Of a stretch of DNA of 64,000 nt, positions 11,218-63,621 are shown piece after piece. The first letter of the stretch is position 1; every line of letters begins with the position of its first letter. This DNA comes from a virus (taxonomy: Duplodnaviria; Caudoviricetes): positions 138,881-202,880 of IMG/VR virus record IMGVR_UViG_3300009185_000001; one strand, written 5' to 3'. The position numbers were made by a program, and so were the translations under genes. A model generated the notes under the pieces. That model made no database searches, was not told where the DNA came from, and worked only from the letters and a program-made list of their open reading frames with translations.

Positions 11218-11985
11218 TTACAATGCTGTCGTAATTAACTGTCCTGAATTATCTACGGTAATTCTCCATCTATTGTTATTCGGTGATCTTAATATCACGC
11301 CTTTGTTAAAGTCCGTTACTTCTATGTCTTCTGTTATACTAGCATTACCCACAACATTTAAAGCTTCTGTAGGACTGTCTGTATTGATTCCAACCTTGTT
11401 TGATCCTACATATAAAGAAATTGTTTCTTGATTGTTATTAATTTCTAAATTATTGGTTACATATAAACTTCCCGTAGAACTTAAATTATTTACATATGTA
11501 AAATTTTCCGCATGACTTGTTAGATTAGAACCTAAAGTAAAAACATTTTCGTGTTGAATTAAATTATTTGTACCCGCAGCATTAAAAGAATTGTTAGAAT
11601 CTAATAAAATTTTATTATTATATCCTGCACCTATAAATGAAAAATTACTTTGAATTTCATTCTCTTCTCCATTTGTTATTGTAGATGCCGCACCGGAAAC
11701 TTTATTATTTATGCCATTAAAAACTGATGAAAATATTTCATCAGCTATATTATTTCCATATTGAAATGAATATGAACTTAGATTCTGATTAAATGTAAAT
11801 AAATTATGCTCAGAATTTAAAAAAGAAATTAGAGACTCGTTTTCATCATTAATTTTTTTAAAAAATATCTTACCATCAGCAAGATTCAGTGCCAATTCAC
11901 CCAATTCTAATGCAGATAAATCAGGTGTTCTATTGGAAATTGTTGATCTTTTAAATTTTATGATACTTTCGCCTAGAGATGGCAT
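11218..11985 (-). CDS. Fibre-type protein with Mtd_N-like N-terminal domain
   Basis: IIKFKRSTISNRTPDLSALELGELALNLADGKIFFK; VGINTDSPTEALNVVGN fibre repeat. Confidence 0.55.
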   Translation of the reverse strand: MPSLGESIIKFKRSTISNRTPDLSALELGELALNLADGKIFFKKINDENESLISFLNSEHNLFTFNQNLSSYSFQYGNNIADEIFSSVFNGINNKVSGAASTITNGEENEIQSNFSFIGAGYNNKILLDSNNSFNAAGTNNLIQHENVFTLGSNLTSHAENFTYVNNLSSTGSLYVTNNLEINNNQETISLYVGSNKVGINTDSPTEALNVVGNASITEDIEVTDFNKGVILRSPNNNRWRITVDNSGQLITTAL

Positions 11986-45687: not shown

Positions 45688-46563
45688 ATGGAACAATTAG
45701 ATTTTTTTGTAAAGTTGGAAGAGAAGAAACCAATTTGTCGTGTTTGTGGTAATGATTTTGAAAAAACTAGAAGATGGCAAAAATATTGTTCTAAAAGTTG
45801 TAAACACAGAAAGTTGAGAATTAAAAAAAAACTATCTAATTTTGTAAAATTAGAAGAAAATAAACCAATTTGTTCTATTTGTGGGAATAGTTTTGAAAAA
45901 ACTAAACATAATAAAATATACTGTTCTAAAAGTTGTAAACATAGACAGGGGTGGATTAAAAACAAAAAAACAAAATCTATATCTAATAAAAAATATCGTT
46001 TAATTAATAAGAAAAAAATAAAAGAAAGAAGAATAGAAACATCTAAAATATATAGAGAGAAAAATAAAGAAGAAATAAAAAAAAAGCAATTAGAATTTTA
46101 TAAAAAAAATAAAAAACGTCTGTGTGAGATTCAAAAAGAATATCGTAAAAATAACAAAAATTCTATATCAGAAACTAAAAAATTATATAGAAAAAATAAT
46201 AGAACAAAAATAAATCAAAATTTAAAGGAAAAATATTGTACTGATTTTTCCTTTAAACTTTCACAAATTTTAAGAAAAAGATTAAGAAACGGATTACGAG
46301 CACAAAAAACAACAAAAACAAATAAAACAGTTGATTTAATAGGATGCTCCTTTGATTTTGTTAAAATTCATTTAGAAAAACAATTCAAAGAAGGAATGAC
46401 ATGGGAGAATCATGGTTTATATGGATGGCACATTGATCATATTATACCTTGTGCATCTTTTGATCTAACAGACCCTGAACAACAAAAGAAATGCTTTCAC
46501 TACACAAACCTTCAACCCCTATGGGCAGCAGAGAATATGTCCAAAGGAGCAAAGATATTATAA
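45688..46563 (+). CDS. Free-standing HNH endonuclease with N-terminal Cys repeats
   Basis: Two C..C...KYCSKSCK units; MTWENHG..GWHIDHIIPCASF...FHYTNLQPLWA.EN.SKG. Confidence 0.8.
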   Translation: MEQLDFFVKLEEKKPICRVCGNDFEKTRRWQKYCSKSCKHRKLRIKKKLSNFVKLEENKPICSICGNSFEKTKHNKIYCSKSCKHRQGWIKNKKTKSISNKKYRLINKKKIKERRIETSKIYREKNKEEIKKKQLEFYKKNKKRLCEIQKEYRKNNKNSISETKKLYRKNNRTKINQNLKEKYCTDFSFKLSQILRKRLRNGLRAQKTTKTNKTVDLIGCSFDFVKIHLEKQFKEGMTWENHGLYGWHIDHIIPCASFDLTDPEQQKKCFHYTNLQPLWAAENMSKGAKIL

Positions 46564-47745: not shown

Positions 47746-48126
47746 CACTCGGTTTTTTTTAAAAATTTTGCAAAAAAAATTTTACCAGAAATTTTTAAAA
47801 ATGTCAAGAATAATCTTCAAAATCTTTAACTCTTTAATATCCAAAATTTTACACAATATTCCCAATACTCCCAAGCCTTCCCAAGTATCCCCCAAGGGGT
47901 ATAGGGGGTATAAGATTCTTAATATTATATCAAATAGGGTATAGTGTTTTTATATCAACCTCTGTTTTAATAGAACATGGTGTAGCATTACAGCAGGATT
48001 TAAAATGACATTAGGTGTTGATGCAGGTTTCTAGCATTTGTAATATTAAGCATATTAGTATAAATTTCCTCTAGGGGGAAAATTACTAATTGATATATAA
48101 TATTAAGAATACTTCCCAATGCTTTT

Positions 48127-48420
48127 TAATATTACCGGAAATTTCTCCTAGGGGGAAAATTGAATATTACTGGAAATTTCTCCTAGGGGATTTTTAATAT
48201 TACTGGAAATAATATTATGAAGAATTTTTAATATTACTGGGAATATTATTATGGGAAATTTTTAATATTACTGGGAATAATATTACGAAGAATTTTTAAT
48301 ATTACTGGAAATTTCTCCTAGGGGGATTTTTAATATTACTGGAAATTTCTTCTAGGGAATTATTGATAATATTAGGAAGGGTATTGGGGGAGGGATGATT
48401 GAGTATTACTGGGAATTTTT
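48127..48420. repeat. ~34-bp tandem repeats, TAATATTACTGG(G)AA core; candidate iterons
   Basis: Unit starts at 48127, 48162, 48195, 48229, 48263, 48297, 48331, 48367, 48401. Confidence 0.75.
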
Positions 48421-48757
48421 GAGGATTTTTGATATTATTTTTATTGGGAAAATTTTTTTTGGTGTGAGTATGATTGTGCATATATTTATGCGTATATGAT
48501 GGGGGAGGGGAGGGGTAGGCAGATTTTGCCTATCAAAAGTTTTTGGAGGTGTCGAAAAATAAAAATTTGACACCTCCAAAACTTTGAAATTTTTGATGCG
48601 GAAATTTTTGCCTATCAAAAGTTTTTGGAGGTGTCGAAAAATAAAAATTTGACACCTCCAAAACTTTCCATGCTGTGGTTGCTCTCCCAAACTTTTTTTC
48701 ATGTTTCCAAAAATAGTTCTTGCTTTTACCAGAAATAAAAACTATTCTATTTGCCTT

Positions 48758-50725
48758 ATGAAATTGCAAACCGCCACAACAACAATCGAACAAATCGGAA
48801 ACATATCACAAGAGGCTCAATTCACGATGAAGACATCGAGAAAAGCCTTTCAGATTCTTTCTGACTTGTATAGTGATAAACCCCTCGCAATCGTTCGTGA
48901 ACTTGGAGCAAATGCCAAGGACGCAATGGTTGCTGCTGGTAAAGGAGATCAACCATTCCATGTTAAACTTCCCAATGCTCTGGAGCCTTGGATTGTTATT
49001 GAAGATATGGGAACTGGTATTTCCCATGAAGACATATACAATGTCTATACGAAATACTTTGAATCTACCAAGTCAGAATCAAATGATTTTGTGGGATGCC
49101 TCGGCTTGGGCAGCAAAAGCCCTTTCTGCTACTCGGATAACTTTTTGATCACTTCTACCCACCAAGGAGTCAAACGCATCTACAATGCCTTTTTCAGCCA
49201 AACTGGAACTCCTGCCATTTCTTTGATGTCCACAGAGAATACAGATCAAGGCAATGGATTGGCAATTCAAATTCCTGTTAAGCTCGCAGATGTTGTCACC
49301 TTCTGCAATGCGGTTGCAAAAGCCTTTCGCTTCTTCAAGATCAAGCCTTCTATTAGTGGTGGGACTATTGATTGGAAGATCAACAAGATTATGTTTGAGG
49401 GTGAAGGATGGGAAGCTCACGAAGGTTTCACCTATGGGGAATGCTATGCAATCATGGGTGGCGTTACCTATCCTGTGGATCGTTACAAACTTTCACATGA
49501 GGCTCAAAACTTTTGTGCCAAGGGTGGAGTTGTCATGTATTTTGAGATCGGAGAATTGGATGTAACTCCTTCCCGCGAATCTCTTTCTTATGACGATGCA
49601 ACAATCAAATCACTTGAAAGCAAATTTGCCTTTATCAAGAAAGATTTTGAGGAAAAGCTGACCAATACTATCGAAGGCAAATCAAACCTTCTGGATGCAC
49701 TTCGTTCACATTGGAATCTTTCTCACACCTTTGCTCATCTTACTACCAATTTTGACAATGTGAAATGGAGGGGCATTGAGCTTTCAAATCCTGCTCAACT
49801 CATTTCAAAAATATCAAAGGGTGATGTTATGACTCATTCCTTTACAAAGTATTCTCGTTCCAAGTATCGGGAATCGGTTTTTGTTTCGATTGATACAAAA
49901 GCCAAGTGGTATGTCGATGACCTTGCAAAAGGAACAACAGCAAGGGTTAAACAACACCTTCGCAGCAACAACGACGATATGCTTTGCGTATTCAGCAAAG
50001 AAACATTCGATACTCTTGTCAATCATAAGGATGTAAACTATCGCTTCGATGCTTCGATGTTCATTCCAACTTCTACCCTGCCCAAGGTTGTCAATACTCC
50101 CAAGGGTGGAACGAGGACTCCCAAGGTTGGTTTCAATGTTTATACCTTTGGAACATCTTGGCACTCCCGATGGGATTCTGAAACCTTCAACCCTGCCAAT
50201 GCTCCCAAATACTATATCGTAAAAGAGGGAAGCACATGGGATATTTCAATCAAAACAAACTTTGGAAAAATCAGCGGAAAGTCTGACTTGCGTTCTTTGC
50301 TTGGATATTTGAATCTCAAGGAATCTGATATTGTCATGGTATCCCCTCAAAACGAAAAGCATCTTGCCCCATTCTCAAAGAATATCAAAGATGCTGCCAA
50401 TGATATTAAAATTGACTTGGATGAAGATACGATTGCAACCGCACAGCATTATGCTAATGATACTTATCAAGATATTAAAAAGCATCCCACATTCAAGAAA
50501 CTGAAACAAGATTCTGATTTTGTGGTGTTTGTGAACAAAGTCTGTGCGGCTCATAATAGTGTGAAGAAATATAAAAACCTTTTGGGAATGTTTACTATGT
50601 CAAAGGGAAAGCCAGCAGTCCTTGATTCCCAATGCCCTATCACAAATCTTGTGTCAAAGCGTATGGGAAGATATGGATGGGAAGCAGAAGACATTCTAAC
50701 CATCCTCGAAAATTTCCAAAAATAA
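48758..50725 (+). CDS. rIIA: rIIA-like protein (HSP90/GHKL ATPase domain); true start likely 48758
   Basis: AFQILSDLYSDKPLAIVRELGANAKDA, DMGTGIS, YFESTK, GCLGLGSKSPFCYSD. Confidence 0.9.
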   Translation: MKLQTATTTIEQIGNISQEAQFTMKTSRKAFQILSDLYSDKPLAIVRELGANAKDAMVAAGKGDQPFHVKLPNALEPWIVIEDMGTGISHEDIYNVYTKYFESTKSESNDFVGCLGLGSKSPFCYSDNFLITSTHQGVKRIYNAFFSQTGTPAISLMSTENTDQGNGLAIQIPVKLADVVTFCNAVAKAFRFFKIKPSISGGTIDWKINKIMFEGEGWEAHEGFTYGECYAIMGGVTYPVDRYKLSHEAQNFCAKGGVVMYFEIGELDVTPSRESLSYDDATIKSLESKFAFIKKDFEEKLTNTIEGKSNLLDALRSHWNLSHTFAHLTTNFDNVKWRGIELSNPAQLISKISKGDVMTHSFTKYSRSKYRESVFVSIDTKAKWYVDDLAKGTTARVKQHLRSNNDDMLCVFSKETFDTLVNHKDVNYRFDASMFIPTSTLPKVVNTPKGGTRTPKVGFNVYTFGTSWHSRWDSETFNPANAPKYYIVKEGSTWDISIKTNFGKISGKSDLRSLLGYLNLKESDIVMVSPQNEKHLAPFSKNIKDAANDIKIDLDEDTIATAQHYANDTYQDIKKHPTFKKLKQDSDFVVFVNKVCAAHNSVKKYKNLLGMFTMSKGKPAVLDSQCPITNLVSKRMGRYGWEAEDILTILENFQK

Positions 50726-50767
50726 ATCTTGCAATTACCAGAAATAATCTCTACTATTATCAGCCTT

Positions 50768-51814
50768 ATGAACACTACAAACAATGCAGTCACAATCACA
50801 GGAACAGGAAAAATCGCAGCGGTCGTCAATGGCAGACCATACTCGATTGCTTCTGATCATCCAAACTACAATCAAATCATTGGGGCTATCAAATCCCAAG
50901 ACTGGACTTCGTTCGTAACTCTTGCCGATGTTACAAGCCAAGTGAAACAATACACGACAACCGATGGAGTTGAGATCGTGGATGGAGCAGTCATCTATAA
51001 GGGTGAAGCAATTCACAATACTCTCACCAATCGAATCGTGAAGTTCATGGGTGAAGGTCTGCCCTTCCAACCCCTCGTAAGGTTCTTGGAAAATCTGATG
51101 AACAATCCAAGCAAGCGAGCAGTGGATGAACTCTACACATTCTTGGAAGTCGGGGAACTTCCAATCACAGAGGATGGATGCTTTCTGGCATACAAGAATG
51201 TTCGTGCGGATTACATGGACATTCATTCGGGAACATTCAGCAACAAGATTGGTGATGTTTGCGAAATGCCTCGCAATCGGGTTTGCGATGATAGCGAACG
51301 CACTTGCTCTGCGGGTCTTCACTTCTGTTCAATCGCATACCTTCCCCACTTCTCCGATAGTGATGGAGGACATACAATGATTGTGAAGATCAATCCTGCG
51401 GATGTTGTTTCAATTCCAAAGGATTACAACAATACTAAAGGTCGGGCTTGCAAGTATGAAGTCATTGCAGAATACACCGAGGATTGGCGTTCCAAGCTCA
51501 ACAAAGGTGAAAGCGGATGGGATGCAGGTCTTTACACTTCTGATGGTGAAGACTATGAGCTTGATGAACTCGATGAGCTTGACGAAAATGAAAACGAAAA
51601 CGATTGCACCTACTCTCATCCAGATTGCGATGATTACCATTGCTTCTGCGAGGACAAGGATTATGGTTACAAACCCAATGGTCACAAGTTCCACAATGTT
51701 CGTGGAGCCGATGGAAAGTTTGTAAAGAAAGAAGAAGAAGGTTTAGGTAAGGTGGTTGGTGGATTGGTGAAGGCATTCAGCGATGCTCTCAACAAAGCAG
51801 GATATATTCACTAA
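50768..51814 (+). CDS. rIIB: rIIB-like protein; true start likely 50768
   Basis: FLENLMNNPSKRAVDELYTFL, LPITEDGCFLAYK, MPRNRV.DD, CSAGLHFCS, VKINPADVVSIPKDY. Confidence 0.92.
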   Translation: MNTTNNAVTITGTGKIAAVVNGRPYSIASDHPNYNQIIGAIKSQDWTSFVTLADVTSQVKQYTTTDGVEIVDGAVIYKGEAIHNTLTNRIVKFMGEGLPFQPLVRFLENLMNNPSKRAVDELYTFLEVGELPITEDGCFLAYKNVRADYMDIHSGTFSNKIGDVCEMPRNRVCDDSERTCSAGLHFCSIAYLPHFSDSDGGHTMIVKINPADVVSIPKDYNNTKGRACKYEVIAEYTEDWRSKLNKGESGWDAGLYTSDGEDYELDELDELDENENENDCTYSHPDCDDYHCFCEDKDYGYKPNGHKFHNVRGADGKFVKKEEEGLGKVVGGLVKAFSDALNKAGYIH

Positions 51815-51830
51815 TCGTTTCATAGGGAAA

Positions 51831-51864
51831 AATCCCCACTCTCAAAAGGAGTGGGGATTTTTTT
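51831..51864 (+). terminator. Intrinsic terminator
   Basis: AATCCCCACTC/GAGTGGGGATT plus T7. Confidence 0.85.
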
Positions 51865-52045
51865 GTGCCTTGAAAAGTTTACCATTTCAAAAAACCCTTC
51901 CCGTAAAACTTTTTTGGAGGTGTCGAAAAATAAAAATTTGACACCTCCAAAACTTTCCGCACTGGATGAGTGCTGCGGTTGCGTTTTTCAAACCATCGAA
52001 AAAAGTTCTTGACCTTACCAGAAATTTCTGAGAGAATTATTGTCT

Positions 52046-52600
52046 ATGAAATCTTATATGCAACAAATCAGCGACTTTGGTAGAGTAGTATCAGAGTATG
52101 ATGAGAATAAGCATATCCTTTCAAAAACAAAATCAATAAACGAAAAGGTAGATGCTCTGTGCAAAGCCATTGAGTATCTTAAACAAAGAGAAGAAGAAGA
52201 ATACGAAGAAGACGAAGAAGACGAAGAAGACGAAGAAGACGAAGAAGAAACACCATCAATAACATCAAGAATAATCAAATCTATGAAAATGCCTGTAATA
52301 ATAGTAGTAGCCGCACATCTGGCAGTGATCGGAGGAATAATGATTACTTCATCAAATTCCGCAAAAGCCAAGCAAATTTCTTCTGATAAAAAAGCATTGG
52401 AAGAATCATATAGTTATGCGAGTGTCGAAGACAAAGGAGAAAACGATTGGCCTAAACCAAAATTCCATGTAGTAACTTCCAAGGATACTTTTTATGGATT
52501 GGTAAAAAAGTATAAAGTCGATGCCAATAAATTCAAAGAAATAAACAAAATCAAAGACATCAATGTTCTGATTGATGGTAAAAAGCTAATCATACCATGA
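52046..52600 (+). CDS. Membrane-anchored protein with acidic tract and C-terminal LysM domain
   Basis: (EED)n tract, TM helix PVIIVVAAHLAVIGGIMI, HVVTSKDTFYGLVKKY...NKIKDINVLIDGKKLIIP. Confidence 0.75.
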   Translation: MKSYMQQISDFGRVVSEYDENKHILSKTKSINEKVDALCKAIEYLKQREEEEYEEDEEDEEDEEDEEETPSITSRIIKSMKMPVIIVVAAHLAVIGGIMITSSNSAKAKQISSDKKALEESYSYASVEDKGENDWPKPKFHVVTSKDTFYGLVKKYKVDANKFKEINKIKDINVLIDGKKLIIP

Positions 52601-52840
52601 CACTCCAAGAAGTTCGCCAACGCAAGAAAGAGAGTAAGAAGACTTTAAGACATTTCTGGACAGCAGTATGCTTGGGAAATATTATATTACTCACAATGCT
52701 TGCGATTATTTCCTATAATCTTTGAAAAATAGTTCTTGACTTTACCAGAAATTTCTGGAATAATATCGCCTCAATCAAACCACAACGAGCAAAGGAACGG
52801 ATGTTCTATCTTGCAAACTATCAACCCTAAAACAAATCAA

Positions 52841-53143
52841 ATGAAATATAAAACCTTCCCATTCACCATCACTATTGACGATGGTTTCAACGAACCTAAA
52901 AATTTCAAAATGGAATTTGATGGTAGTGTTAGTATGCTCGATCTCATCAAAACCTTGGAAGAAAAATTCCAAGCTAAACCATCCATCGAGGAACTTCTTT
53001 CAGAAGCTATGGAACTGGCGAGCAAATCAATCACGCTTGCGGAGGATTATAGTGAATCCGAAAAGGTGAAATGCCTCGCAAAGAAGTTTGAAGAACTGGA
53101 ATGCAAAGTATGGGATATGGAAGAATCTATCTCCCAAAAATAG
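52841..53143 (+). CDS. Hypothetical protein (likely start MKYKTF)
   Basis: ORF downstream of the promoter at 52736. Confidence 0.5.
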   Translation: MKYKTFPFTITIDDGFNEPKNFKMEFDGSVSMLDLIKTLEEKFQAKPSIEELLSEAMELASKSITLAEDYSESEKVKCLAKKFEELECKVWDMEESISQK

Positions 53144-53180
53144 TAAAATCAACCAACAAAAAAAACAAACCAAAAACCAA

Positions 53181-53645
53181 ATGAAAACTAATATGTCATT
53201 CACAGGAGATTTAGGACACAATCCTAAAATCATTGAAAAGTATAATCGAATTGCAAAAAGATTCGATGTAACCGAACTTCCAATCCTTTTAGAATCTTGG
53301 ATGGACGAAACCGATATGCACGATTTCGCAACTCATCTGGAAAATAGATACTATGCTAATTTCAATGAGTATGTGATCGAATACAACATTCGTTCTCTCT
53401 GTGGAACGAAAGCATATTCAGCAGTCATCATCGACAAGAAAGAGTTTGGATCAGATTTCGAGGATATGGTTTCTTACCACATAGCCCATGAGGTGAAAGA
53501 AGATGGTTCTGTATATTATCTGGAACACGACTTGGAAGGAAGACGAGCAGATAAAGGGAATCAAAATGTTTTATATGATCGTGCATGGGTTCGATCACCC
53601 AAGGAAGGAAAAGAATTTCTTCGATACCTTGAGGCAAATCTTTAA
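53181..53645 (+). CDS. Hypothetical protein (likely start MKTNMS)
   Basis: A/C-rich leader precedes the ATG. Confidence 0.5.
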   Translation: MKTNMSFTGDLGHNPKIIEKYNRIAKRFDVTELPILLESWMDETDMHDFATHLENRYYANFNEYVIEYNIRSLCGTKAYSAVIIDKKEFGSDFEDMVSYHIAHEVKEDGSVYYLEHDLEGRRADKGNQNVLYDRAWVRSPKEGKEFLRYLEANL

Positions 53646-53748
53646 AATAATTCTTGACATATTTTCAAGAATAAAAGAATATATCGACTTCATTGATGGT
53701 AAAACATCATATATAACCAAAACAAAAACCAAATAGAAAGAAAAGCAA

Positions 53749-54225
53749 ATGCCAAACCATTGCAACAACCAACTCACACTCGCAAGCGGAGAAGACCTTT
53801 TGAGTGTATTGAATCCCTACATAACATTAAAGGGAGATGACATTATCGGATGCCAAGAATACCACTTCGATTTCAACAAGATCATTCCAGAACCAAAACC
53901 AGAAGTAGAAGACTGGTATGGATGGAGAGTAGAAAATTGGGGAACGAAATGGGAAGGATATGAGGGTCGATTCAATCAGGATCAATCCGAATTCTCATTT
54001 TGCACAGCATGGAGTCCTCCACTTCCAATCATAAAGAAACTCGCAGAAATTACTGGACAGACTTTTGTTCTTGGGTATATTGAAGAAGGAATGTTCTTCT
54101 GTGGAAAATATACAGCAGGACGAGAATTTGACCATGATGAGTATTACGATGACATCAAAGCAGCACCACAGGAACTTCAAGATGAACTCGGATATGAGGA
54201 ATGGGAAGAAGTAGAAACAGAATAA
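53749..54225 (+). CDS. DUF1281/YubB ferredoxin-like family protein
   Basis: MPNHC.N.L, FDFNKIIPEP, WYGWRVENWGTKW, F.TAWSPP. Confidence 0.75.
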   Translation: MPNHCNNQLTLASGEDLLSVLNPYITLKGDDIIGCQEYHFDFNKIIPEPKPEVEDWYGWRVENWGTKWEGYEGRFNQDQSEFSFCTAWSPPLPIIKKLAEITGQTFVLGYIEEGMFFCGKYTAGREFDHDEYYDDIKAAPQELQDELGYEEWEEVETE

Positions 54226-54260
54226 CCAACCAACCAACCAACCAACCAAACAAACAATAC

Positions 54261-55661
54261 TATGAAATTCACAAGAACAGAATATGTAAGGCGTTATCCA
54301 GAAATGAACAAGATGCGGAAGAATGATCCAATACAATTCAGCGTTTTATTCAATGAGTGGGTTAGAAAAAATAAAAAATAAAAACAACCAACCAATAAAA
54401 ACCAAATGAGAAAAATATATGTAGATGTAAAAGTTCGATTGATTATGAACCTTGAAGAAGGAGTATCGGTCGATGATGCAATCAGCGAAATGGATTATGT
54501 TTTTAATCTTGAAAATGAACATGGAGAGATGGTGGATACAGAGATAATGGATTACAATGTGGAGGATTCAAAATGAAAACAATTACATTGACAGAAGCGC
54601 ATCGAATCCTTGAAGATGCAAGTGCCATAATCATTGACAATGATGTTGTGCTGTATCCATCATTGTCAGAATTGAAAGAAGACGATACAAACGAGTTCAT
54701 GTATCTATCATGGGGTTATGAAGGAGAAGGTTATAGTCTCAGATTTGAAGAGTGGAGAAACCAAGAAGTAGAAGTTGTAGGTTCTTCAATGTTTCTTTAT
54801 GCAAAAGGAGACAGTGACCATACCCAAATTACAATCCTAATAACAAAAGAATTAGAATAATATGAACATCAACAAACTCATCAAACGACTCGAAAAGATT
54901 AAAGACTTGGGAGTCAAAGAAGTAAGTGTAATCGACTGCAACTGGAACGACTGGGACATTGAAACAATCGAACCAGATACAAGCGGAGGATTCGCAATGA
55001 TTCAAATCTCACAATCAGAATCATTCGGACAAGATGAAGAGGATAGTGAAATCTATCCAGAAGAAATTGAAGATTAAAAATATGAAAATACTAACAGACA
55101 ACCGATACATTGGAACCCTCGAACGAAAAATTGCAGTAACCCTAAACCAAAATCTAATTCCCGATGAAGAAGGAAAATACCTTTCTATGGCAAAATCTAT
55201 GGATGCTTTGACAGAAGAAATTTCTCGATCCGTCCGCAGGTTTCAGAATGAAAGTATTCCAGAGAGTATCTGATGAAGGTTAAACCTCAACTATATCAAA
55301 CTGCTGTGTCAAATCAACTTAAAAAGAAAATGACAATAGTCATGGAAGGCGGACTCATTCAAGATATTGTAAAGGAAAATATCTCAGATGTTCTAATAGA
55401 AGTCCACGACTATGATGTTGATGGTATTGATCCCTCAACGCTTAAAAAAGATAACAACAACAAACAATTCCACAAAACAACCTTAGATTGATATGTCAAG
55501 CAAAGAAGCCAAAATTATTGCATTCGCCCTTCAACATCTTCTGATTGATTGGAACGATAACATTGAAAACCAACTCGATGATATTGCAATCGACAAGGAC
55601 ATTGAATACCTCCAAAAGAAATACGAAGGCAAAAGCCAAACATACATAGCACACGAACTCT
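54261..55661 (+). CDS. Run of seven tightly packed small ORFs (54261, 54406, 54573, 54862, 55082, 55273, 55493)
   Basis: Abutting or overlapping starts and stops; acidic small proteins with no recognised family. Confidence 0.5.
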
Positions 55662-56635
55662 AATAGTGTTTTTATAGAACAGCGTGTCAGAATGTAACAT
55701 AGTGTTACATTGCAACAAAAAATCAAACACTTTATTTTTTTTCACACGCACATACGTAACGCATACGTGAGAGGACTTGACAAATTTTTTTCCAGAGGTA
55801 TGTATATTAAGAATACTTCTTAAATTATGAATTCTTCAGAATATATTAAGAATATATAATTATATATTAGTAAATTAACAATTCTTTATAATATTAACAA
55901 TATATAAAATATATAATAATATTAAGAAAATATAATAATACTAAGAATAGGCAAGATGGAAAGTAATTTAGGAAAAGAATTTGATTTGACCTTTGACGGA
56001 ATATTAGATAGGTGGGTAGTCATTGGAATCTTTGAAGAGAATAATGACTATCAATACATCATTCAAAACAAAAAGGAAGATTGTAAAATTATTAACAAAG
56101 AAGAAATAGAATAAACCACATACAAAAAATAAATAGGGATTTCCCCAAGAGATTAAAAACTCTTGGGGTTTTTTTATGCGTATGGAATGGTTTTTTATAT
56201 TTATACGCATAAATTTAGGTAGGCAAAATTTGCCCACTCCTGCAAGTTTTTGGAGGTATTAAAAAATAAAAATTTGACACCTCCAAAAACCTCAAAGCCC
56301 ATTGACGGAAAATTTTCAAGTTTTGGAGGTGTCAAAAAATAAAAATTTGACACCTCCAAAACTTTCCAGTTCGGCGTTTAAAAATAAAAATTATTCTTGC
56401 TTTTATCAGAAAAAAATTATAGTCTTCTCAACCTTATGAAAAATCTATTCTCATTCCTATTCCCTGCAAAGAAACCTTCATTGCTTGCCTTGAGCATTGC
56501 CACCTTCACGAATGAAAGCCACCTTTCCCAAATTTTCCGACAAGGGAGAATATGGGAATACTCTATAAAATAATTTTCCCGATTGGAAAAATAATTCTTG
56601 CTATTACCAGAAATATCTGAGAAACTATCTGCCTT

Positions 56636-57313
56636 ATGAAGCTACTATCCACCACAAACACGAAAATCAAAAAGGGCGAAAAATTCGGATGGACTACCTT
56701 CGGGCTTTCCCTCGCTCCTGCAAACCTTTCAGGCAAACAGCTTTGCCCTCATCGCAGCAAAGGCTGTGAATTGGCTTGTCTCAACACCGCTGGCATGGGT
56801 GTCTTTTCAAATGTTCAAGAGGCTCGTATCGCCAAATCAAAATATCTGATTGAGGAAAAAAATTCTTTTGTTGCTCAACTGAAAAAAGAATTGATTGCTG
56901 CCGAAAAGAAATCCAAGAAACTTGGCATGAAAATTGCGGTTCGTTTGAATGTCCTTTCCGATCTTCCGTGGTATAACATGATTGAGATGTCTGAATATCC
57001 TAACATCCAATTTTATGATTATACTCCAAATGTTTCACGCATGATTCAATTCTTGCGTGGGGAATTGCCAGAAAATTATCACCTCACTTTTTCCCGTAAA
57101 GAAAATAATCAAAGCAAAGTCGAATTGATTGCTTCTATGGGGGGAAACATTGCTGCCGTATTTGATACGCTTCCTGATACCTATCTTGGAAAGAAAGTTA
57201 TTGATGGGGATGAAACCGATCTCCGCTTCATGGATGATAAGAATGTCATTGTCGGATTGAAAGCAAAAGGAAAAGGAAAGAAAGATACTTCGGGCTTCGT
57301 GATTAAAGCCTAA
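56636..57313 (+). CDS. GP88-like phage protein
   Basis: LSLAPA...LCP.RS.GC..ACL..AG.G, VRLNVLSDLPW, FYDYT, NYHLTFS, DGDETDLRF. Confidence 0.7.
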   Translation: MKLLSTTNTKIKKGEKFGWTTFGLSLAPANLSGKQLCPHRSKGCELACLNTAGMGVFSNVQEARIAKSKYLIEEKNSFVAQLKKELIAAEKKSKKLGMKIAVRLNVLSDLPWYNMIEMSEYPNIQFYDYTPNVSRMIQFLRGELPENYHLTFSRKENNQSKVELIASMGGNIAAVFDTLPDTYLGKKVIDGDETDLRFMDDKNVIVGLKAKGKGKKDTSGFVIKA

Positions 57314-57330
57314 AAACTTTCCTCCATAAA

Positions 57331-57365
57331 AACTCCACACTCTGAAAGGGGTGTGGAGTTTTTTT
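57331..57365 (+). terminator. Intrinsic terminator
   Basis: AACTCCACAC/GTGTGGAGTT plus T-run. Confidence 0.85.
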
Positions 57366-57735
57366 ATATCTTGGCACGATCCTTGCTTGTAAGCAAAATC
57401 TGTGCCAACTATAAAATCTCCTCCCCCGTGAAACTTTTTTTGGAGGTGTCAAAAAATAAAAATTTGACACCTCCAAAAAACCCCTATCGCTGGGGTGTTC
57501 ACCTGCCTATTACTTTTTGAAAATTGGTTATGTTTTCCTCCTATGAAAACTCGAATCACTCTGCATCTTCGTTGTATGATCAATAATCCTAAGAATTGGA
57601 AATTCTATGCCAAGGGAATCCTTCGTGAATTCCATGAAGTCTTTCTCACCTTCATGGATTGCTTCTGAAACTATTTTTCCAATTAGAAAAAAAGTTCTTG
57701 ACTTTACCAGAAATATCTGAGAAACTTTCTGCCTT

Positions 57736-58146
57736 ATGAAACTTAAATTCCAATACACCGATGGAGGACGCTCACTCGCTGGCTACTCAGGAAAGACTGG
57801 GGATTGCGTAGTTCGTGCGCTTGCACTTGCCACAGGCTCATCATATATGAATATGTATCAGTTCGTCAATGCAACCTCAAAGGCATTTGAATCTCATCGC
57901 AGAGTCAAATCCAATAATGTTCATGGAGTATATGAAGCATCCGTTCGCGGAATTATGAGGGTCATGAAATTCAAGTGGACGGCAAAGAAAGTCGGAGCTA
58001 TGCTAAAAATTCCAACAAAGGGAAGTTATATCGTTTCCATCCAAGGTCATGTTTGCGCTGTCGTCAATGGAATTATCTTGGACACTCACAATTCCCTCAC
58101 CCCCGACAATCTTCGTTACTCCTACGGATACTGGAAAGTAAAGTAA
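57736..58146 (+). CDS. Conserved phage hypothetical protein, leaderless
   Basis: GDCVVRALA.A.G..Y, YIVSIQGHV.AV.NG...DT. Confidence 0.6.
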   Translation: MKLKFQYTDGGRSLAGYSGKTGDCVVRALALATGSSYMNMYQFVNATSKAFESHRRVKSNNVHGVYEASVRGIMRVMKFKWTAKKVGAMLKIPTKGSYIVSIQGHVCAVVNGIILDTHNSLTPDNLRYSYGYWKVK

Positions 58147-58153
58147 AAATCTT

Positions 58154-58387
58154 ATGAACACACTAACAGACAAAACAAAACCTTGGGGAAAAATAACCTT
58201 TATCCATCACAAGACAGGCAAAGAACATTCTTTCTATTCATGCGTAAATAAACTATCAAATAGCCGCTTGTCTGCATTTGATAATGAAGCTCCTTCTATC
58301 GGAGACAACATGGCATGGGTAAAAAGCGTTTTTAGAAAAATCAATGGAAAGTGCAAAGTTTTATCATTTGAGGGAAACATAAAATAA
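58154..58387 (+). CDS. Hypothetical protein
   Basis: 77-aa ORF. Confidence 0.5.
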   Translation: MNTLTDKTKPWGKITFIHHKTGKEHSFYSCVNKLSNSRLSAFDNEAPSIGDNMAWVKSVFRKINGKCKVLSFEGNIK

Positions 58388-58560
58388 AAACATTAACCAC
58401 ACTCCTCGCTACTATCACAGATACTAATATGAAATACCTAAACGACTCTCTAACCTTTGCAATCTTTATGGCTGTGTTCTTCTATTCCATGATGGGACTT
58501 ATCCTTGCTCTTGGAAAGTTTGTAGAGACTCACGGACTATAAGCAAACATCGTTCCTCAG

Positions 58561-58596
58561 AATCCCATCACTCGAAAGGGTGGTGGGATTTTTTTT
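58561..58596 (+). terminator. Intrinsic terminator (identical copy at 60851-60887)
   Basis: AATCCCATCAC..GTGGTGGGATT plus T-run. Confidence 0.85.
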
Positions 58597-58834
58597 GTTC
58601 AACAATATTCAAGTTCAACCTTTTTTTGGAGGTGTTAAAAACTAAAAAATTGACACCTCCAAAAACCCTCGCCCCTGCCCTCGTTGGCGTGTCGCCAAAA
58701 CTTGGCACAGGATATGCTTCTGAAATTATTTTCCCGATTCTAAAAATAATTCTTGCTATTACCAGAAATTCCAATTACTATTTTAAACATGATGAACAAT
58801 TCATCATACCTAACAACAAACCAAATATAATACT

Positions 58835-59869
58835 ATGGCATCAGGAATCACACTCGTAGATCGCATTTACTCCGTCGAAGGCACAGAATGGCACAGAATG
58901 GCTATTCCAAAAGCAAAAATCCTTCGGGAAGAAATCAAAGACATTCTTTGGCCTATCATTCAATCTCCTGCAATGATCCAAGTGGATGGCAACAATATCG
59001 AACTCCCAAACTATAAAGTCCTCTGTGCAGACATGCGTGGACTTCGGGATGACTTGGAAACCGAAATCGTTCCTCTCCATATTCCAAAGTCGGGTTATCA
59101 AGTCATTGACAATCCCCAAGTATGGGAAGTCATGGAGAAGGCACTGAAAGACTTGGATGCTACTATCACAAGCGTCGGAACTTTGGAGGGTGGTAAAAAG
59201 TTTTTTATCTCCTGCGTCATTGGTGACTCAGAAATGGTCATCAATAAAGATAAATTCAAGTTTTATATCAACTTCGTCACTTCCCATGATGGGACTATCA
59301 CGATGTTTGTTTATGACTCTTCCATGCGGATTGTCTGCATGAATACTCTTCGCTGGTCAATGCAAAAGGCAGGAGAAATGGGTTTCCGAATCATGCACAC
59401 TAAGAATGCTTCTCTGGCATTGGAGAATCTTCCTCAACTTGTGAATGCAATTCTCACAGGTCGTTCGGACTTGAAACAAGTCATGGAATACCTCTATAAC
59501 CACAAGTGCGATAAGAATGATGCGCTTGCGATGGCAGCAGGATACTTTGTGGAAACTACTGGAAACAAAGAACTCACCACAAGGTCATGGAAAGCAGCAG
59601 AGCAAATCGGAGGACTCTTTTATTGCGGAATCGAGTGCAATGGGGAGACTCTTTATGACTTGGCAAACGCCGCTACCGAATACTGGACAACAGGACTCGG
59701 AACAGGAATGAAAGGAACCTCACAAAGCGCAAGGCTTTACAAGTCTGCAATGGGTGGAGCAGCAGAACATAAAGAGCAGTTTATCGGAATGCTCTCGGAT
59801 GAGACTCAGCGGACGATCATGCTGGATAAGGGTCGTTCAGCAGTCAAGACTGCCCTTGCGAACGCATAA
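58835..59869 (+). CDS. DUF932 family phage/plasmid protein
   Basis: WH.M, YQVIDN.Q, SVGTLEGGKKFF, TSHDGT, RIVCMNTL, RIMHTKNA. Confidence 0.8.
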   Translation: MASGITLVDRIYSVEGTEWHRMAIPKAKILREEIKDILWPIIQSPAMIQVDGNNIELPNYKVLCADMRGLRDDLETEIVPLHIPKSGYQVIDNPQVWEVMEKALKDLDATITSVGTLEGGKKFFISCVIGDSEMVINKDKFKFYINFVTSHDGTITMFVYDSSMRIVCMNTLRWSMQKAGEMGFRIMHTKNASLALENLPQLVNAILTGRSDLKQVMEYLYNHKCDKNDALAMAAGYFVETTGNKELTTRSWKAAEQIGGLFYCGIECNGETLYDLANAATEYWTTGLGTGMKGTSQSARLYKSAMGGAAEHKEQFIGMLSDETQRTIMLDKGRSAVKTALANA

Positions 59870-59889
59870 GGGAATAACCTCATAAGAAG

Positions 59890-59920
59890 ACCCCACTCTC
59901 AAAAGAGGGTGGGGTTTTTT
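59890..59920 (+). terminator. Intrinsic terminator
   Basis: ACCCCAC/GTGGGGT stem plus T-run. Confidence 0.85.
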
Positions 59921-60125
59921 TATCAATGCGTGTTGAAATGTAACATGGTGTCGCATTACAGCAAGAATTCTACCCATGCGTTTTAAGTCATAGAAAAAAC
60001 TGCGGATATGTATCATTTATATCATTTGAATTTTTTCTTGTAAAAAGTTATTGCAATTACCAGAAATTATTGCTATACTATTTGCTCAATAAAATTCCAT
60101 ACTCAACCAACCAAAAATCCCTAAC

Positions 60126-60311
60126 ATGAAAGAAAACACCGCACTCATCCTCACCGATAAAAAGACCAATAACATTGCTCATATTATCGTCTGCAAAGAT
60201 GAAGAAGAAATAAGCAAATACATAATGAAGGACGATCCCAAGATCAACTATCAAATCGTCCCAAACTGGAATATCGTTTGCAAAGCAGTTGAAAAGTTTC
60301 AAATCAAATAA
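60126..60311 (+). CDS. Small hypothetical protein
   Basis: Downstream of the promoter at 60051. Confidence 0.5.
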   Translation: MKENTALILTDKKTNNIAHIIVCKDEEEISKYIMKDDPKINYQIVPNWNIVCKAVEKFQIK

Positions 60312-60662
60312 TAACCCCAAACCAATAACACCATTGCTATGAAATACTATCCTTAAAAATTTTAATCAATAGTCAAAAACTAAACAAACACCCCATAGGC
60401 AGATTTTGCCTATGGGGTTTTTTATGCGTATAAAAGTTAAGATAGGCAAAAATTGCCCATAGGCAAAAATTGCCTACCTCGGCGGAATTCCTGAAGTTTT
60501 TGGAGGTGTTAAAAACTAAAAAATTGACACCTCCAAAACCTTTGCCCCCTGCCCTCGTTGGCGTGTCGCCAAAATTTGGCATGGTTTGTGCTTCAAATTA
60601 TTTTACCGATTAGAAAAATAGTTCTTGCAATTACCAGAAATAAATTATACTCTATCTGCCTT

Positions 60663-60836
60663 ATGAAATCAAAAGTCATCACCTACGCAGAGTTTGAGAG
60701 AATTGCTGAAAAATTCCCCAAATGCCCCAAGGCAGAATTTCAAGCCTCCATCGAAGAATACTTCGTGGTTGAGTGGGAGGATGGGAAAAATTATCCCTCG
60801 CGCTTGGTTCACTATTTCAAGCCAATATTCGGTTGA
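60663..60836 (+). CDS. 57-aa protein, leaderless single-gene unit
   Basis: Promoter -10 TACTCT 9 nt before ATG; terminator follows. Confidence 0.6.
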   Translation: MKSKVITYAEFERIAEKFPKCPKAEFQASIEEYFVVEWEDGKNYPSRLVHYFKPIFG

Positions 60837-61105
60837 TTAAAAAATCAATCAATCCCATCACTCGAAAGGGTGGTGGGATTTTTTTTTGTCCAAAAATATC
60901 CGAGGGGACAGGGAGAGTTTTGGAGGTGTTAAAAACTAAAAAATTGACACCTCCAAAACCTCCGTCCCCTCCGCTCGTGCGTGAACTGCGGTTAGAATTA
61001 TTTTTCGGAATTCAAAAATAATTCTTGCTATTACCAGAAATAAATGCGATACTTCTTGGCGTGATGAATGAATCATCACAAAACCAAAATCAAAAATAGC
61101 CAAAT

Positions 61106-61645
61106 ATGAACATCAAAATCAGCGCAATCGACAGCCTCCGCGAGGCCACTAAAAGGGGATGCAAGTTTATGACATTCCTCTACACCAGCAAGGGAACAGG
61201 AGAAACCTCCAAGTATCAGATCAACTTCGGTATCAGCAACAAGTCCGCTTGCGAACATGACCGAGAAGCACTTCTTGCCTATGTCCCTCAATCAGAGCTT
61301 GAGGAAACCGCTAAAGCGGAATTGCTCAAGTCCCTCACCGAGACAATCGAAGAGGGTGTCAGCAAGTCCTACACGCAAGCCGATACATATGACTACATCG
61401 GCAAGGGCATCCGTCAGCATAAAGAGACTGGGGAAATCTACATTGACGGCTTCATTCAGTCCAAGGAACAGGTTGAGCCTCCGACCAATCCAAAGAAACC
61501 AGTCAACAGCCGACCCCTCACGCTTGCCAAGAATGCAATCAAAGAGACTTGCAACTTCAAGCGTAACAAGTTCGGCAGCTTCATTCTCAACCCCTCCAAT
61601 ATCGGCGGCATCGTTGTCTGTGGGGATGTCGTAGAGATTCACTAA
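61106..61645 (+). CDS. Hypothetical protein; untagged paralog of 43731-44429
   Basis: Shared F.Y.SK..G...KY....G and FIL.P.NI.GI blocks. Confidence 0.7.
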   Translation: MNIKISAIDSLREATKRGCKFMTFLYTSKGTGETSKYQINFGISNKSACEHDREALLAYVPQSELEETAKAELLKSLTETIEEGVSKSYTQADTYDYIGKGIRQHKETGEIYIDGFIQSKEQVEPPTNPKKPVNSRPLTLAKNAIKETCNFKRNKFGSFILNPSNIGGIVVCGDVVEIH

Positions 61646-61661
61646 AGCACAACGCTCAACC

Positions 61662-61693
61662 AACCCCACTCTTGAAAGAGGGTGGGGTTTTTT
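61662..61693 (+). terminator. Intrinsic terminator
   Basis: AACCCCAC/GTGGGGTT plus T-run. Confidence 0.85.
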
Positions 61694-61999
61694 GTTGCAC
61701 TTAATTAACTATTTAATTAACTATTTAATTAACTATTAACTATCACTTAATTAACACTTAATTAAGGTAGGCAAAAATTGCCTACCTCGGCGGAACTGCG
61801 GAAGTTTTTGGAGGTGTTAAAAACTAAAAAATTGACACCTCCAAAAACCTTTGCCCCCTGCGCGGGTGCGCGAACCTTGGCATGGTTTGTGTTTCAAACT
61901 ATTTTCCCGATTAGAAAAATAGTTCTTGCAATTACCAGAAATATGAATTACTATTTTAACCATGATGAACAACAATCATCATATCTAACAATAACCACT

Positions 62000-62266
62000 A
62001 TGCTAATGCAAACACCAAAGGTAGGGGATCTTGTCCTCTACAGATTCCAAGGAACACGAACTGACATTCCATTCCGAGTCACGCAGGTCGATGAGGCTAA
62101 GGGAACTATCGTGGCTTATGACGAGGCCACAGGGGGTTACGGCTCCGAAACTCATGGGTTCGATATGTGCGAGAAGGGATTGACCAACTTCCCCACGGAC
62201 AAGGCATCTCAAGACCTTGTCTGGAAGAAACTTCGGGCTTACGCGAAACGCGCAGGAGCGATTTAA
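62000..62266 (+). CDS. Small SH3/KOW-like hypothetical protein (likely start 62000)
   Basis: TPKVGDLVLY...FRVTQVD...GTI. Confidence 0.5.
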   Translation: MLMQTPKVGDLVLYRFQGTRTDIPFRVTQVDEAKGTIVAYDEATGGYGSETHGFDMCEKGLTNFPTDKASQDLVWKKLRAYAKRAGAI

Positions 62267-62281
62267 CTCCTCGACCCCACC

Positions 62282-62315
62282 AAACCCTATCCTCGAAAGA
62301 GGGTAGGGTTTTTTT
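62282..62315 (+). terminator. Intrinsic terminator (identical copy at 63121-63153)
   Basis: AACCCTATC/GGTAGGGTT plus T-run. Confidence 0.85.
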
Positions 62316-62553
62316 GTATCTTGGCACGATCCTTGCTTGTAAGCAAAATCTGTGCCAACTATAAAATCTCCTCCCCCGTGAAACTTTTTTTGGAGGTGTC
62401 AAAAAATAAAAATTTGACACCTCCAAAAACTTCCGCCCCCTGCCCTCGTTGGCGTGTCGCCAAAACTTGGCACAGGATATGCTTCAAATTATTTTTCGGA
62501 ATTCAAAAATAATTCTTGCTATTACCAGAAATAAATGCGATACTATTTGTCCT

Positions 62554-63096
62554 ATGGTAAAAAATCCACCAGTCAGTATCGTCCTAACAAATAACGGCGA
62601 TCTCATCGCCACCAACGAAATCAAAGAGGGGGAAGTCCTAAAGCTAACAATTACGGAATACCCTGTCATTCGCGTTCCAGAAAAATTCCTATACGATCAT
62701 ATGATAGGTAGAGAATGTCCTTCTCCATTCATCGTGAGAGAAACCAAACAGCACTATTTCATTGCCGCTATCGACTGTGATGGCTGGAGGGATTTAGTGA
62801 GTGATGCAGAGTTCTACACTGATCCCTATGGCCCTGACGCTGAATACCTCCACGGCATCAAGAAGTCTGCAAAGGCTACTCTGAAGGCAATGAGTGCAGT
62901 TACTCCGGTGACGCTTGAGCGAACCTACAAGATCGAGATGTTCGCCCATCACATCCCTGCGTGGGGATGGTTTGAGTTTGCCTTGGACAAGATTACTCCT
63001 CTTGTTCCGTTCCTTACCAGAAAATCAGCGAGAGAGTATATCAAGGATCGAAGCCTCGAAGGAAACGGCTTCGACTTCCGAGTAGTACCTTGCTGA
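62554..63096 (+). CDS. Hypothetical protein, leaderless (start 62554)
   Basis: -10 GATACT 9 nt before ATG. Confidence 0.55.
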   Translation: MVKNPPVSIVLTNNGDLIATNEIKEGEVLKLTITEYPVIRVPEKFLYDHMIGRECPSPFIVRETKQHYFIAAIDCDGWRDLVSDAEFYTDPYGPDAEYLHGIKKSAKATLKAMSAVTPVTLERTYKIEMFAHHIPAWGWFEFALDKITPLVPFLTRKSAREYIKDRSLEGNGFDFRVVPC

Positions 63097-63621
63097 TAGC
63101 CGTCCGGTCTCGACCCCACCAAACCCTATCCTCGAAAGAGGGTAGGGTTTTTTTGTAGCAGTCTGCAATAACGTAACACTCTGCTACACCATCACACTTA
63201 ATTAACTATTAACTATAATTTAATTGAGACTTAATTAACTATTAACTATAATTTAATTGAGACTTAATTAAATACTCCCTCCGGTTTTTGGAGGTGTTGA
63301 AAAATAAAAGTTTGACACCTCCAAAAACTCGTTTCTTTACAAAACTGATTTGATATAAAATGCGGTAATGAAACAAACATAGTATTAACCGAGGGTGGCT
63401 GTTAAAAAATCTTAATAGACAATTTAAAAGGGATGGGGGTAGGGGAGGCAATGCCCCTCCCCTACCCCCTATATAATCCTCCCAATCTTCCCAATATAAA
63501 CAAGGTTCCTGCTAATCCTCTTAATATCAACAATTTTTGTATAATATTCGTAATATCCTTAATATTAATAATATAATAAAAAATCCCCCTGCGAAGCCTT
63601 TATTTAAGAGGGGTTCTTACT

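Follow-up and report, generated by a model that had tools for sequence, protein, structure and literature searches.

The window, as we call the stretch that we analysed, is the final 64 kb of a virus record of 202,880 bp and carries twelve copies of a 41-bp palindrome, of which the first two stand just upstream of the phage gene rIIA. The termini of the record overlap by 123 bp, and the genome was rated 100% complete. The phage is an uncultured T4-like jumbo phage and, since rIIA follows copies 1 and 2 of the palindrome and rIIB precedes copy 3, the array is its early, hyperplastic region. The element is real, non-random and clade-wide.

Matches to TTTTGGAGGTGT-N17-ACACCTCCAAAA occur twelve times in the window, where 0 are expected, and not once in 100 shuffles; the twelve lie at exactly the positions that a preliminary description of this DNA had given for its inverted repeats. 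All twelve are confined to the final 15 kb of the genome and, as that description had it, all are intergenic. A scan of the whole 202,880 bp, with up to 2 mismatches allowed, found no 13th copy, so that the copies in the window are all the copies there are, and no convincing lone half-site was seen in this phage's genome. The 12-bp arms are identical at 287 of 288 positions, the sole substitution being the G>A already recorded for the copy at 56248, while spacers and flanks vary. The spacer measures 17 nt in every copy, is A-rich on the + strand and occurs in five variants; the longer dyad described earlier, with 16 bp on each side of a 9-nt core, is present in the copies at 56321, 57438 and 62388 only. 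Folded as single-stranded DNA, the copies reach -13 to -20 kcal/mol (z-scores -5 to -8), and they are followed by AAAAC, without a T run. The copies are:

48541..48581, + strand: copy 1, spacer type a; opens the tandem pair ahead of rIIA
48623..48663, + strand: copy 2, type a, with the rIIA promoter 54 nt downstream
51912..51952, + strand: copy 3, type a, after the rIIB terminator
56248..56288, + strand: copy 4, left arm G>A; forms a tandem pair with copy 5, 73 nt apart
56321..56361, + strand: copy 5, type c, 16-9-16 dyad
57438..57478, + strand: copy 6, type c
58624..58664, + strand: copy 7, type d
60498..60538, + strand: copy 8, type d
60918..60958, + strand: copy 9, type d
61806..61846, + strand: copy 10, type d
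62388..62428, + strand: copy 11, type c, a recombinant junction by its flanks
63286..63326, + strand: copy 12, type e, last boundary, with no promoter after it

Boundaries of the early units

Each of nine + strand intrinsic terminators has a palindrome 32-136 nt downstream, and nine palindrome copies or copy pairs have the promoter TTCTTGnnnTTACCAGAAA 33-217 nt downstream. This promoter occurs in 16 copies, all on the + strand, between 39491 and 62513; as read from the sequence, it consists of a -35 box TTGnnn, a 17-nt spacer and a -10 box (T/G)AnnnT, with the ATG about 10 nt past the -10 box. The promoters that have no terminator upstream (50726, 52733, 56595 and 60048) have no palindrome either. 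Because terminators have copies, copies have promoters and promoters without terminators have no copies, the palindrome is a boundary mark in the order terminator, palindrome, promoter. The positions of the terminators and promoters thus bear out the order proposed in the preliminary description (inverted repeat, promoter, one or more genes, terminator, inverted repeat). Promoters and terminators around the array are as follows:

48717..48735, + strand: early promoter of rIIA (-35 TTGCTT, 17 nt, -10 TATTCT)
50726..50744, + strand: early promoter for rIIB, within the end of rIIA, without a palindrome
51828..51864, + strand: intrinsic terminator after rIIB, GC stem and T run, read directly; the same element is in the relatives L005 and L006
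52006..52024, + strand: early promoter
52733..52751, + strand: internal early promoter, no terminator or palindrome ahead
56143..56175, + strand: intrinsic terminator
56394..56412, + strand: early promoter
56595..56613, + strand: early promoter of the GP88-family gene
57328..57370, + strand: intrinsic terminator
57695..57713, + strand: early promoter of cassette D
58559..58600, + strand: intrinsic terminator
58750..58768, + strand: early promoter of the DUF932 gene
60048..60066, + strand: internal early promoter
60390..60425, + strand: intrinsic terminator, its stem itself a TAGGCA..TGCCTA palindrome
60622..60640, + strand: early promoter
60851..60887, + strand: intrinsic terminator
61022..61040, + strand: early promoter
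61662..61695, + strand: intrinsic terminator
61923..61941, + strand: early promoter
62282..62317, + strand: intrinsic terminator
62513..62531, + strand: early promoter
63121..63156, + strand: intrinsic terminator

The open reading frames (ORFs) within these boundaries are mostly ORFans, and the sole family matches are to LysM, DUF1281_C, GP88 and DUF932. The genes and units named in what follows are:

48758..50725, + strand: rIIA (655 aa), by homology
50768..51814, + strand: rIIB, PF26926 matched on orthologues
56636..57313, + strand: GP88-family gene (PF17338), cassette A
57736..58387, + strand: cassette D, ORFs of 136 aa and 77 aa
58835..59869, + strand: DUF932 gene, cassette B
60126..60836, + strand: two small ORFan units (61 aa, 57 aa), without counterpart in L005 or L006
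61106..61645, + strand: 179-aa ORFan, cassette C
61943..63096, + strand: two ORFan units (about 90-107 aa, 180 aa), without counterpart in L005 or L006

Shine-Dalgarno sequences are not used in this genome, GGAG standing upstream of only 5 of 141 long ORFs. Promoter boxes, early ones and late ones (TAAATA-type) alike, sit about 6-12 nt from the ATG. The missing Shine-Dalgarno signal together with these short distances implies that the mRNAs would be mostly leaderless or nearly so, and the host independent of such signals. After two of the promoters (58790-58834; 61960 onwards) we observed ATGATGAAC.., out of frame with a long ORF about 45 nt on (DUF932), which may be a short upstream ORF or reflect a mis-set start. 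The Rfam scan returned tRNAs only, with no match at the palindrome.

Palindromes and cassette order in related phages

Relatives were reached via rIIA homologues, in the first place L005 (89% identity, a 210-kb contig) and L006 (92%), with L152, L153 and about 25 more distant loci added later; their rIIA identities range from 41 to 92%. Over this whole range the promoter motif and the layout of terminator, palindrome and promoter are kept, and the boundaries of the early units on the rIIA side are built in this order across the clade. The palindrome of the window itself is found in no relative, even with 4 mismatches, so that the motif of the preliminary description is absent from them in its exact form and its place is taken, in the same layout, by other palindromes. 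An exact scan for arms of the window type elsewhere gave 0 matches in viral_contigs and metagenome_contigs; a looser pattern of 16 bases picked up no array, only more than 118 chance hairpins, each single and in an unrelated contig.

The palindromes at these boundaries fall into several types. In L005, L006, L152 and L153 the palindrome is AAAGTTGTAAGAT-N17-ATCTTACAACTTT; in L031 it is TTGTAAGAT-N17-ATCTTACAA, with 14 copies in 14 kb; and in L007, L012, L009, L010 and L011 it is CCGTAAGAT..ATCTTACGG. GTAAGAC-type palindromes occur in L025, L026 and L030, and unrelated dyads stand at equivalent places in L015-L024. The commonest arm type among the relatives is GTAAGAT-N17-ATCTTAC, whose core GTAAGAT..ATCTTAC is kept in sequence, beyond mere pairing, down to about 51% rIIA identity. 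A complete relative of 210 kb has three copies, all near rIIA. Half-site spacing is constant across lineages at 17 +/- 1 nt, while the sequence of the spacer varies; within L005, L006, L031 and L012 its polarity is mixed (T-rich, A-rich or mixed). The uniform A-rich polarity reported in the preliminary description therefore holds for the window but is not conserved. Towards their outer ends, the arms within one genome differ from copy to copy yet stay complementary, and the perfect arms of L031 measure 13-18 nt. G:T and A:C arm mismatches are mixed over all lineages without strand bias, and therefore leave no mark of one transcribed strand.

Half-sites also occur outside palindromes. L005 and L006 hold lone half-sites at the recurring offsets R-48-L-24-R, and in L010 (9547-9770), just upstream of rIIA, five direct repeats with a 45-bp period each contain the half-site TATCTTACGGA. 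This direct array has an iteron-like arrangement. In a strain that we call X4 (2025 lake water, rIIA about 97% identical), the arms of two copies differ by one base, GACACCTAC replacing GACACCTCC, and this variant is an intermediate step from the common type to that of the window. On the window positions 48660 and 56380, X4 shows the arm variant GACACCTAC plus a perfected inner stem (TTCGAC). The palindrome of the window is this phage's version of a cis element common to a clade of uncultured freshwater T4-like jumbo phages.

Comparison of the window with L005 and L006 by BLASTN gave blocks of 90-96% identity that end within about 50 nt of palindromes, with the intervening spacers replaced between blocks. 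The cassette order in the window is GP88, D, DUF932, ..., C; in L006 it is GP88, DUF932, C, D, with D after the 179-aa gene; and in L005 it is GP88, X, DUF932, D, with D after DUF932. L152 carries a further 181-aa unit. Left and right flanks of the window copies have different nearest partners: the left flank of the copy at 62388 matches that of 57438 and its right flank matches those of 58624 and 60498, and because the two flanks match different copies this copy is a recombinant junction. Contigs of X4 have joints 8 nt ahead of two palindromes (60910>62380) and further joints at the borders of promoters or terminators; several cassettes of this strain are replaced between promoter and terminator borders. 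These contigs were aligned at 92% likeness, two other joints are short-sided and some may be artefacts, and we treated all X4 joints as supporting evidence only. Many cassette break-points, likewise, fall at promoter or terminator borders rather than inside the palindrome core. Contigs of the source-sample run X1, which drop rare variants, showed no deletion or circle joints. A caveat is that the cassette orders rest on metagenome assemblies of a repeat-rich region, although the 41-nt repeats are shorter than the reads. A change of gene order at the repeats had been predicted in the preliminary description, and the order of A, B, C and D does differ among the three assemblies; the relatives are not collinear here, cassettes having been gained, lost and reordered at the copies. 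The gene-shuffling part of that earlier proposal is supported, and its recombinase mechanism is not.

Candidate partners and neighbouring repeats

The preliminary description had seen no recombinase in the window, and this extends to the complete genome, which has no match to tyrosine integrases (PF00589; a host enzyme could still act), serine recombinases (PF00239) or Y1 transposases (PF01797). The phage genome has no sigma-54 activator (PF00158) either. It does encode a UvsX/RecA homologue, and beside the array lies a nuclease gene:

45688..46563, + strand: P0122, 291-aa nuclease with two Zn ribbons, basic YRxxNK repeats and a C-terminal HNH-like motif

The 291-aa protein matches the PHROG 'endonuclease VII' and has no Pfam family; a PDB sequence search with it gave no match. 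Homologues adjoin arrays in L005, L007, L010, L011, L152, L153 and G002 and are missing from two complete relatives having few or no palindromes; further loci for the family are L005 993-2752, L152 4967-5704 and L150 1489-2097. The N-terminus does not follow the palindrome type, since the Zn ribbon is near-identical in the window and L152 despite different arms, and L005 and L152 have the same arms and different nucleases. The family is also very large (more than 7,800 metagenomic matches) and present in unrelated phages. Its synteny with the arrays is suggestive, but as a candidate partner of the palindrome the nuclease is a weak lead. Its N-terminus, MEQLDFFVKLEE, resembles capsid-targeting-like leaders.

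A second palindrome, TAGGCA-N5-TGCCTA, occurs in 6 copies against 0.12 expected, each just upstream of a 41-bp palindrome. The following were located (no strand is assigned to them):

48516..48532: TAGGCA-N5-TGCCTA, immediately before copy 1
56220..56236: TAGGCA-N5-TGCCCA, immediately before copy 4
60396-60412: TAGGCA palindrome within the terminator stem 60390..60425
60443..60476: two adjacent TAGGCA-N5-TGCC(C/T)A, upstream of copy 8
61768..61784: TAGGCA-N5-TGCCTA, upstream of copy 10

Unlike the 41-mer, this palindrome is unchanged in L006 and L031, and for this reason another, conserved DNA-binding protein probably binds to it.

Other repeats accompany the array. About seven tandem 34-bp repeats lie upstream of rIIA (window 48123-48368; also L005 3251-3546 and L006 463-791), each holding TATTACTGGAAAT, a form of the promoter spacer motif TATTACCAGAAAT in which CTGG replaces CCAG; they may be a decoy or binding array for a reader of the promoter spacer, or part of an origin. 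A sigma-54-like motif, TTGGCAC-N5-TTGCTT, stands at 57372-57407, 62322-62357, 58703, 60577 and 62468 and is limited to the subclade of the window, L005 and L006; two pairs of it, each right behind a terminator, face each other as a 36-bp palindrome. AT-rich tandem repeats of ACTTAATTAAC lie between terminator and palindrome at two boundaries (61699-61765 and 63196-63271); L005 and L006 have them at the corresponding end of the cassette (L006 about 11690-11800).

Interpretation and comparison with known systems

We give an about even chance to the reading that the palindrome is a lineage-specific site for a putative dimeric DNA-binding protein in cassettes akin to the promoter/stem-loop (PeSL) cassettes of T4-type phages, and that its copies also serve as points of crossover and gene conversion. 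Of the two options put forward in the preliminary description, we favour an operator for a dimeric phage protein over a recombinase platform. A dimeric, sequence-specific protein would read double-stranded DNA through two 7-8-bp half-sites, 17 bp apart around an AT-rich spacer, and on the early units its binding might have the effect of a shut-off operator, of a roadblock or insulator, or of an activator. That a dimer recognises double-stranded DNA is argued for by the conserved half-site sequence, the fixed spacing, the single and direct half-sites and the position at every boundary; a hairpin cannot account for the lone half-sites and direct arrays. Identical copies in direct repeat, together with the phage UvsX, would be preferred points of crossover and gene conversion, at which cassettes of promoter, gene and terminator could be gained, lost and reordered by homologous exchange as in PeSLs. 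Gene conversion would in addition keep the copies uniform within a genome while lineages diverge; since copies are uniform within a genome and change stepwise between lineages, conversion among copies seems to be needed, and a recombination-proficient T4-like phage can supply it.

Several observations weigh against this reading. No reader was found: Pfam and PHROG scans of about 40 neighbouring ORFs revealed no DNA-binding domain, the genome has no HTH_3 match, and the ORFs of the array are acidic ORFans or members of families without assigned function. The outer arms, variable yet complementary, fit a hairpin, a cruciform or arm-to-arm conversion better than a plain dimer, which points to a part for such structures or for such conversion as well. 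The palindrome stands at no fixed distance from the promoter (33-217 nt) or the terminator (32-136 nt), so that no simple operator geometry is defined, and the half-site centres, about 25 bp apart, are not separated by a whole number of helical turns. Finally, the cassette orders and the X4 joints come from metagenome contigs, and some of the joints are perhaps artefacts.

We hold it unlikely that the palindrome is purely structural and has no dedicated reader, being a cruciform or hairpin cut or stalled by a structure-specific nuclease, whose breaks would seed recombination-dependent replication and shuffling, with conversion from copy to copy and from arm to arm giving uniformity. The stability of the hairpins (-13 to -20 kcal/mol, z-scores -5 to -8), the outer arm flanks that vary among copies and remain complementary, the break-points at palindrome borders and the 'endonuclease VII'-like Zn-ribbon/HNH gene beside the array, absent from the two complete relatives with few or no palindromes, would all agree with such a structure. 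However, drift and homogenisation would not preserve the core GTAAGAT..ATCTTAC across deep divergence, lone half-sites and direct-repeat arrays cannot fold in this way, a constant 17-nt spacer makes an unfavourable hairpin loop, and the nuclease belongs to a family with more than 7,800 matches, found also in unrelated phages, whose N-terminus does not track the palindrome type. An element acting in RNA, in which read-through transcripts would fold into a hairpin as a back-up terminator, a processing site like the RNase III sites that punctuate the early RNA of T7, or a 3' stabiliser, seems improbable to us. Each copy here is just downstream of a terminator, many copies in L005 and L006 are followed by a T run, and the variable inner positions 13/29 and 14/28 of the window keep G:T pairs on the + strand; yet the window hairpin is followed by AAAAC without a T run, Rfam gave no match, G:T and A:C mismatches are mixed over the lineages, and an RNA stem would not be expected to keep its sequence or to occur as lone half-sites and direct arrays. 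In the RNA run X3 the listed contigs lie within gene bodies and none covers a palindrome; as contigs break at the 41-nt repeats, this run was not used.

Quite improbable, too, is that the copies are iteron-like initiator sites, with monomers on the direct repeats upstream of rIIA, dimers on the palindromes, several origins in the early region and the AT-rich palindrome centres acting as unwinding elements. The direct half-site array of L010 upstream of rIIA, the roughly 1 kb of DNA, non-coding and rich in repeats, that precedes rIIA in all relatives and the AT-rich centres point this way, but twelve scattered copies, one per operon boundary, are unlike the distribution of an origin, no initiator was found and the GC skew carries no specific signal. 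The platform suggested in the preliminary description, integron- or lox-like, would have a tyrosine recombinase bind the arms and exchange strands in the asymmetric core, with cassettes excised and inserted as circles. Sites of such recombinases have 11-13-bp arms around a 6-8-bp crossover region, and like attC, loxP and dif the palindromes are inverted repeats around an asymmetric centre that bracket cassettes of variable order; in this genome they are co-oriented, cassettes are gained, lost and reordered at them, and their left and right flanks are discordant. Nevertheless we consider this platform very improbable. In a genome rated 100% complete no match to PF00589, PF00239 or PF01797 was found; between the 12-bp arms the spacer is 17 nt (9 at best, in the three copies with the 16-9-16 dyad) in place of 6-8; core polarity is mixed in relatives; and the relatives use lone half-sites and direct half-site arrays. 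Core heterology blocks exchange of the Cre or Xer type, and the recombined copies differ in their core (type c against type d). Integron cassettes, moreover, are promoterless and share a common promoter, whereas each unit here bears its own promoter and terminator, and several break-points lie at the borders of these. Least probable of all, in our view, is an upstream activating sequence for a sigma-54 enhancer-binding protein, about 85 nt before a TGGCAC-N5-TTGCT promoter. TTGGCA(C/T)-N5-(A/G)TGCTT does follow the copies at 58624, 60498 and 62388 by 40-45 nt, and in degenerate form the copy at 61806, and in L005 and L006 the motif keeps its GG and GC while its spacer varies. Against this, it accompanies only 3-4 of the 12 copies and none in other palindrome-bearing lineages, its face-to-face pairs at 57372-57407 and 62322-62357 are more like a protein site than a promoter, the phage has no PF00158 match, and a conserved sigma-70-type promoter follows anyway.

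Other candidates were rejected. GGAGGTG pairs with CACCTCC of the 16S 3' end, and a Shine-Dalgarno or anti-Shine-Dalgarno mimic was ruled out by the absence of Shine-Dalgarno use (GGAG at 5 of 141 long ORFs) and by the unlike arms of relatives. An intrinsic terminator was dismissed for its 9-17-nt loop and for the A4C that stands after the hairpin instead of a T run, and a repetitive extragenic palindrome (REP/RAYT) or IS200-type hairpin element for the lack of a Y1 (HUH) transposase (PF01797).

Among the closest known systems are the PeSL cassettes of RB49/phi1, PST/T4 and nt-1/KVP40, in which a terminator and a strong early promoter stand between small ORFans (PMC2839356, PMC4122927). In hyperplastic T4-like regions PeSLs recur many times, close relatives differ by insertions, deletions and replacements whose break-points coincide with them, and homologous recombination is the presumed route (Arbiol et al. 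2010, PMC2839356; Comeau et al. 2014, PMC4122927). Recombination between adjacent PeSLs gives rise to mini-circles. The array resembles them in its sigma-70-like early promoters before small genes (16 copies of TTCTTGnnnTTACCAGAAA here), in its place in a hyperplastic region at indel and replacement break-points between close relatives, and in that each boundary as a whole contains a terminator plus a promoter. It differs in that the PeSL stem-loop is itself the terminator, directly upstream of the promoter, whereas here the canonical terminator is separate and the palindrome is a third module, with no T run, a 17-nt AT-rich centre, invariant arms, lineage-specific variants and, in relatives, lone half-sites and direct arrays. 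The element is best filed as a variant of the PeSL-type regulatory cassette with an extra lineage-specific palindromic site.

In Cluster A mycobacteriophages the stoperators, present in tens of copies, are asymmetric sites of 13-14 bp that follow the direction of transcription and to which the monomeric immunity repressor of temperate phages binds (PMC6550527; PMC9283540), and their motif changes in concert with its repressor across the genome (Mavrich and Hatfull 2019, PMC6550527). They share with the array the many copies of one short, lineage-specific site in the short intergenic regions of a gene block, but the present sites are palindromes in a T4-like and presumably lytic phage, in which no repressor was found. 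The homologous regions (hrs) of baculoviruses are dispersed imperfect palindromes of about 30 bp, bound by IE-1 and tied to early expression and replication, which are uniform within a genome, differ between viruses and lie at sites of gene-content variation. This likeness is an analogy only, since the hrs belong to a eukaryotic virus, form tandem clusters where the array has one element per unit, and have a known reader in IE-1.

A more speculative reading, which we think rather unlikely, is that the palindromes and their putative reader form a fast-evolving identity system and that the sites double as a recombinase-free analogue of an integron in a lytic phage. Each lineage would then tag every early-unit boundary with its own site, the arms changing in concert (GTAAGAT to GTAGGTG to GGAGGTG), and the reader, a regulator or the neighbouring Zn-ribbon/HNH nuclease, would act on matching or non-matching genomes only, controlling them or, in mixed infections, cutting or silencing them.

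Hyperplastic early regions are where T4-like phages keep and exchange genes for host takeover and anti-defence. In the present clade the junction of exchange is marked by a discrete element, conserved across the clade and yet specific to each lineage, that can be traced across metagenomes. It offers a handle for finding a new family of DNA-reading proteins, for measuring concerted evolution and cassette flux in uncultured phages, and for predicting the points at which foreign genes with their own promoter and terminator could be inserted. If the arms are indeed identity tags read by a nuclease or a repressor, they would add a new layer to the competition between phages.

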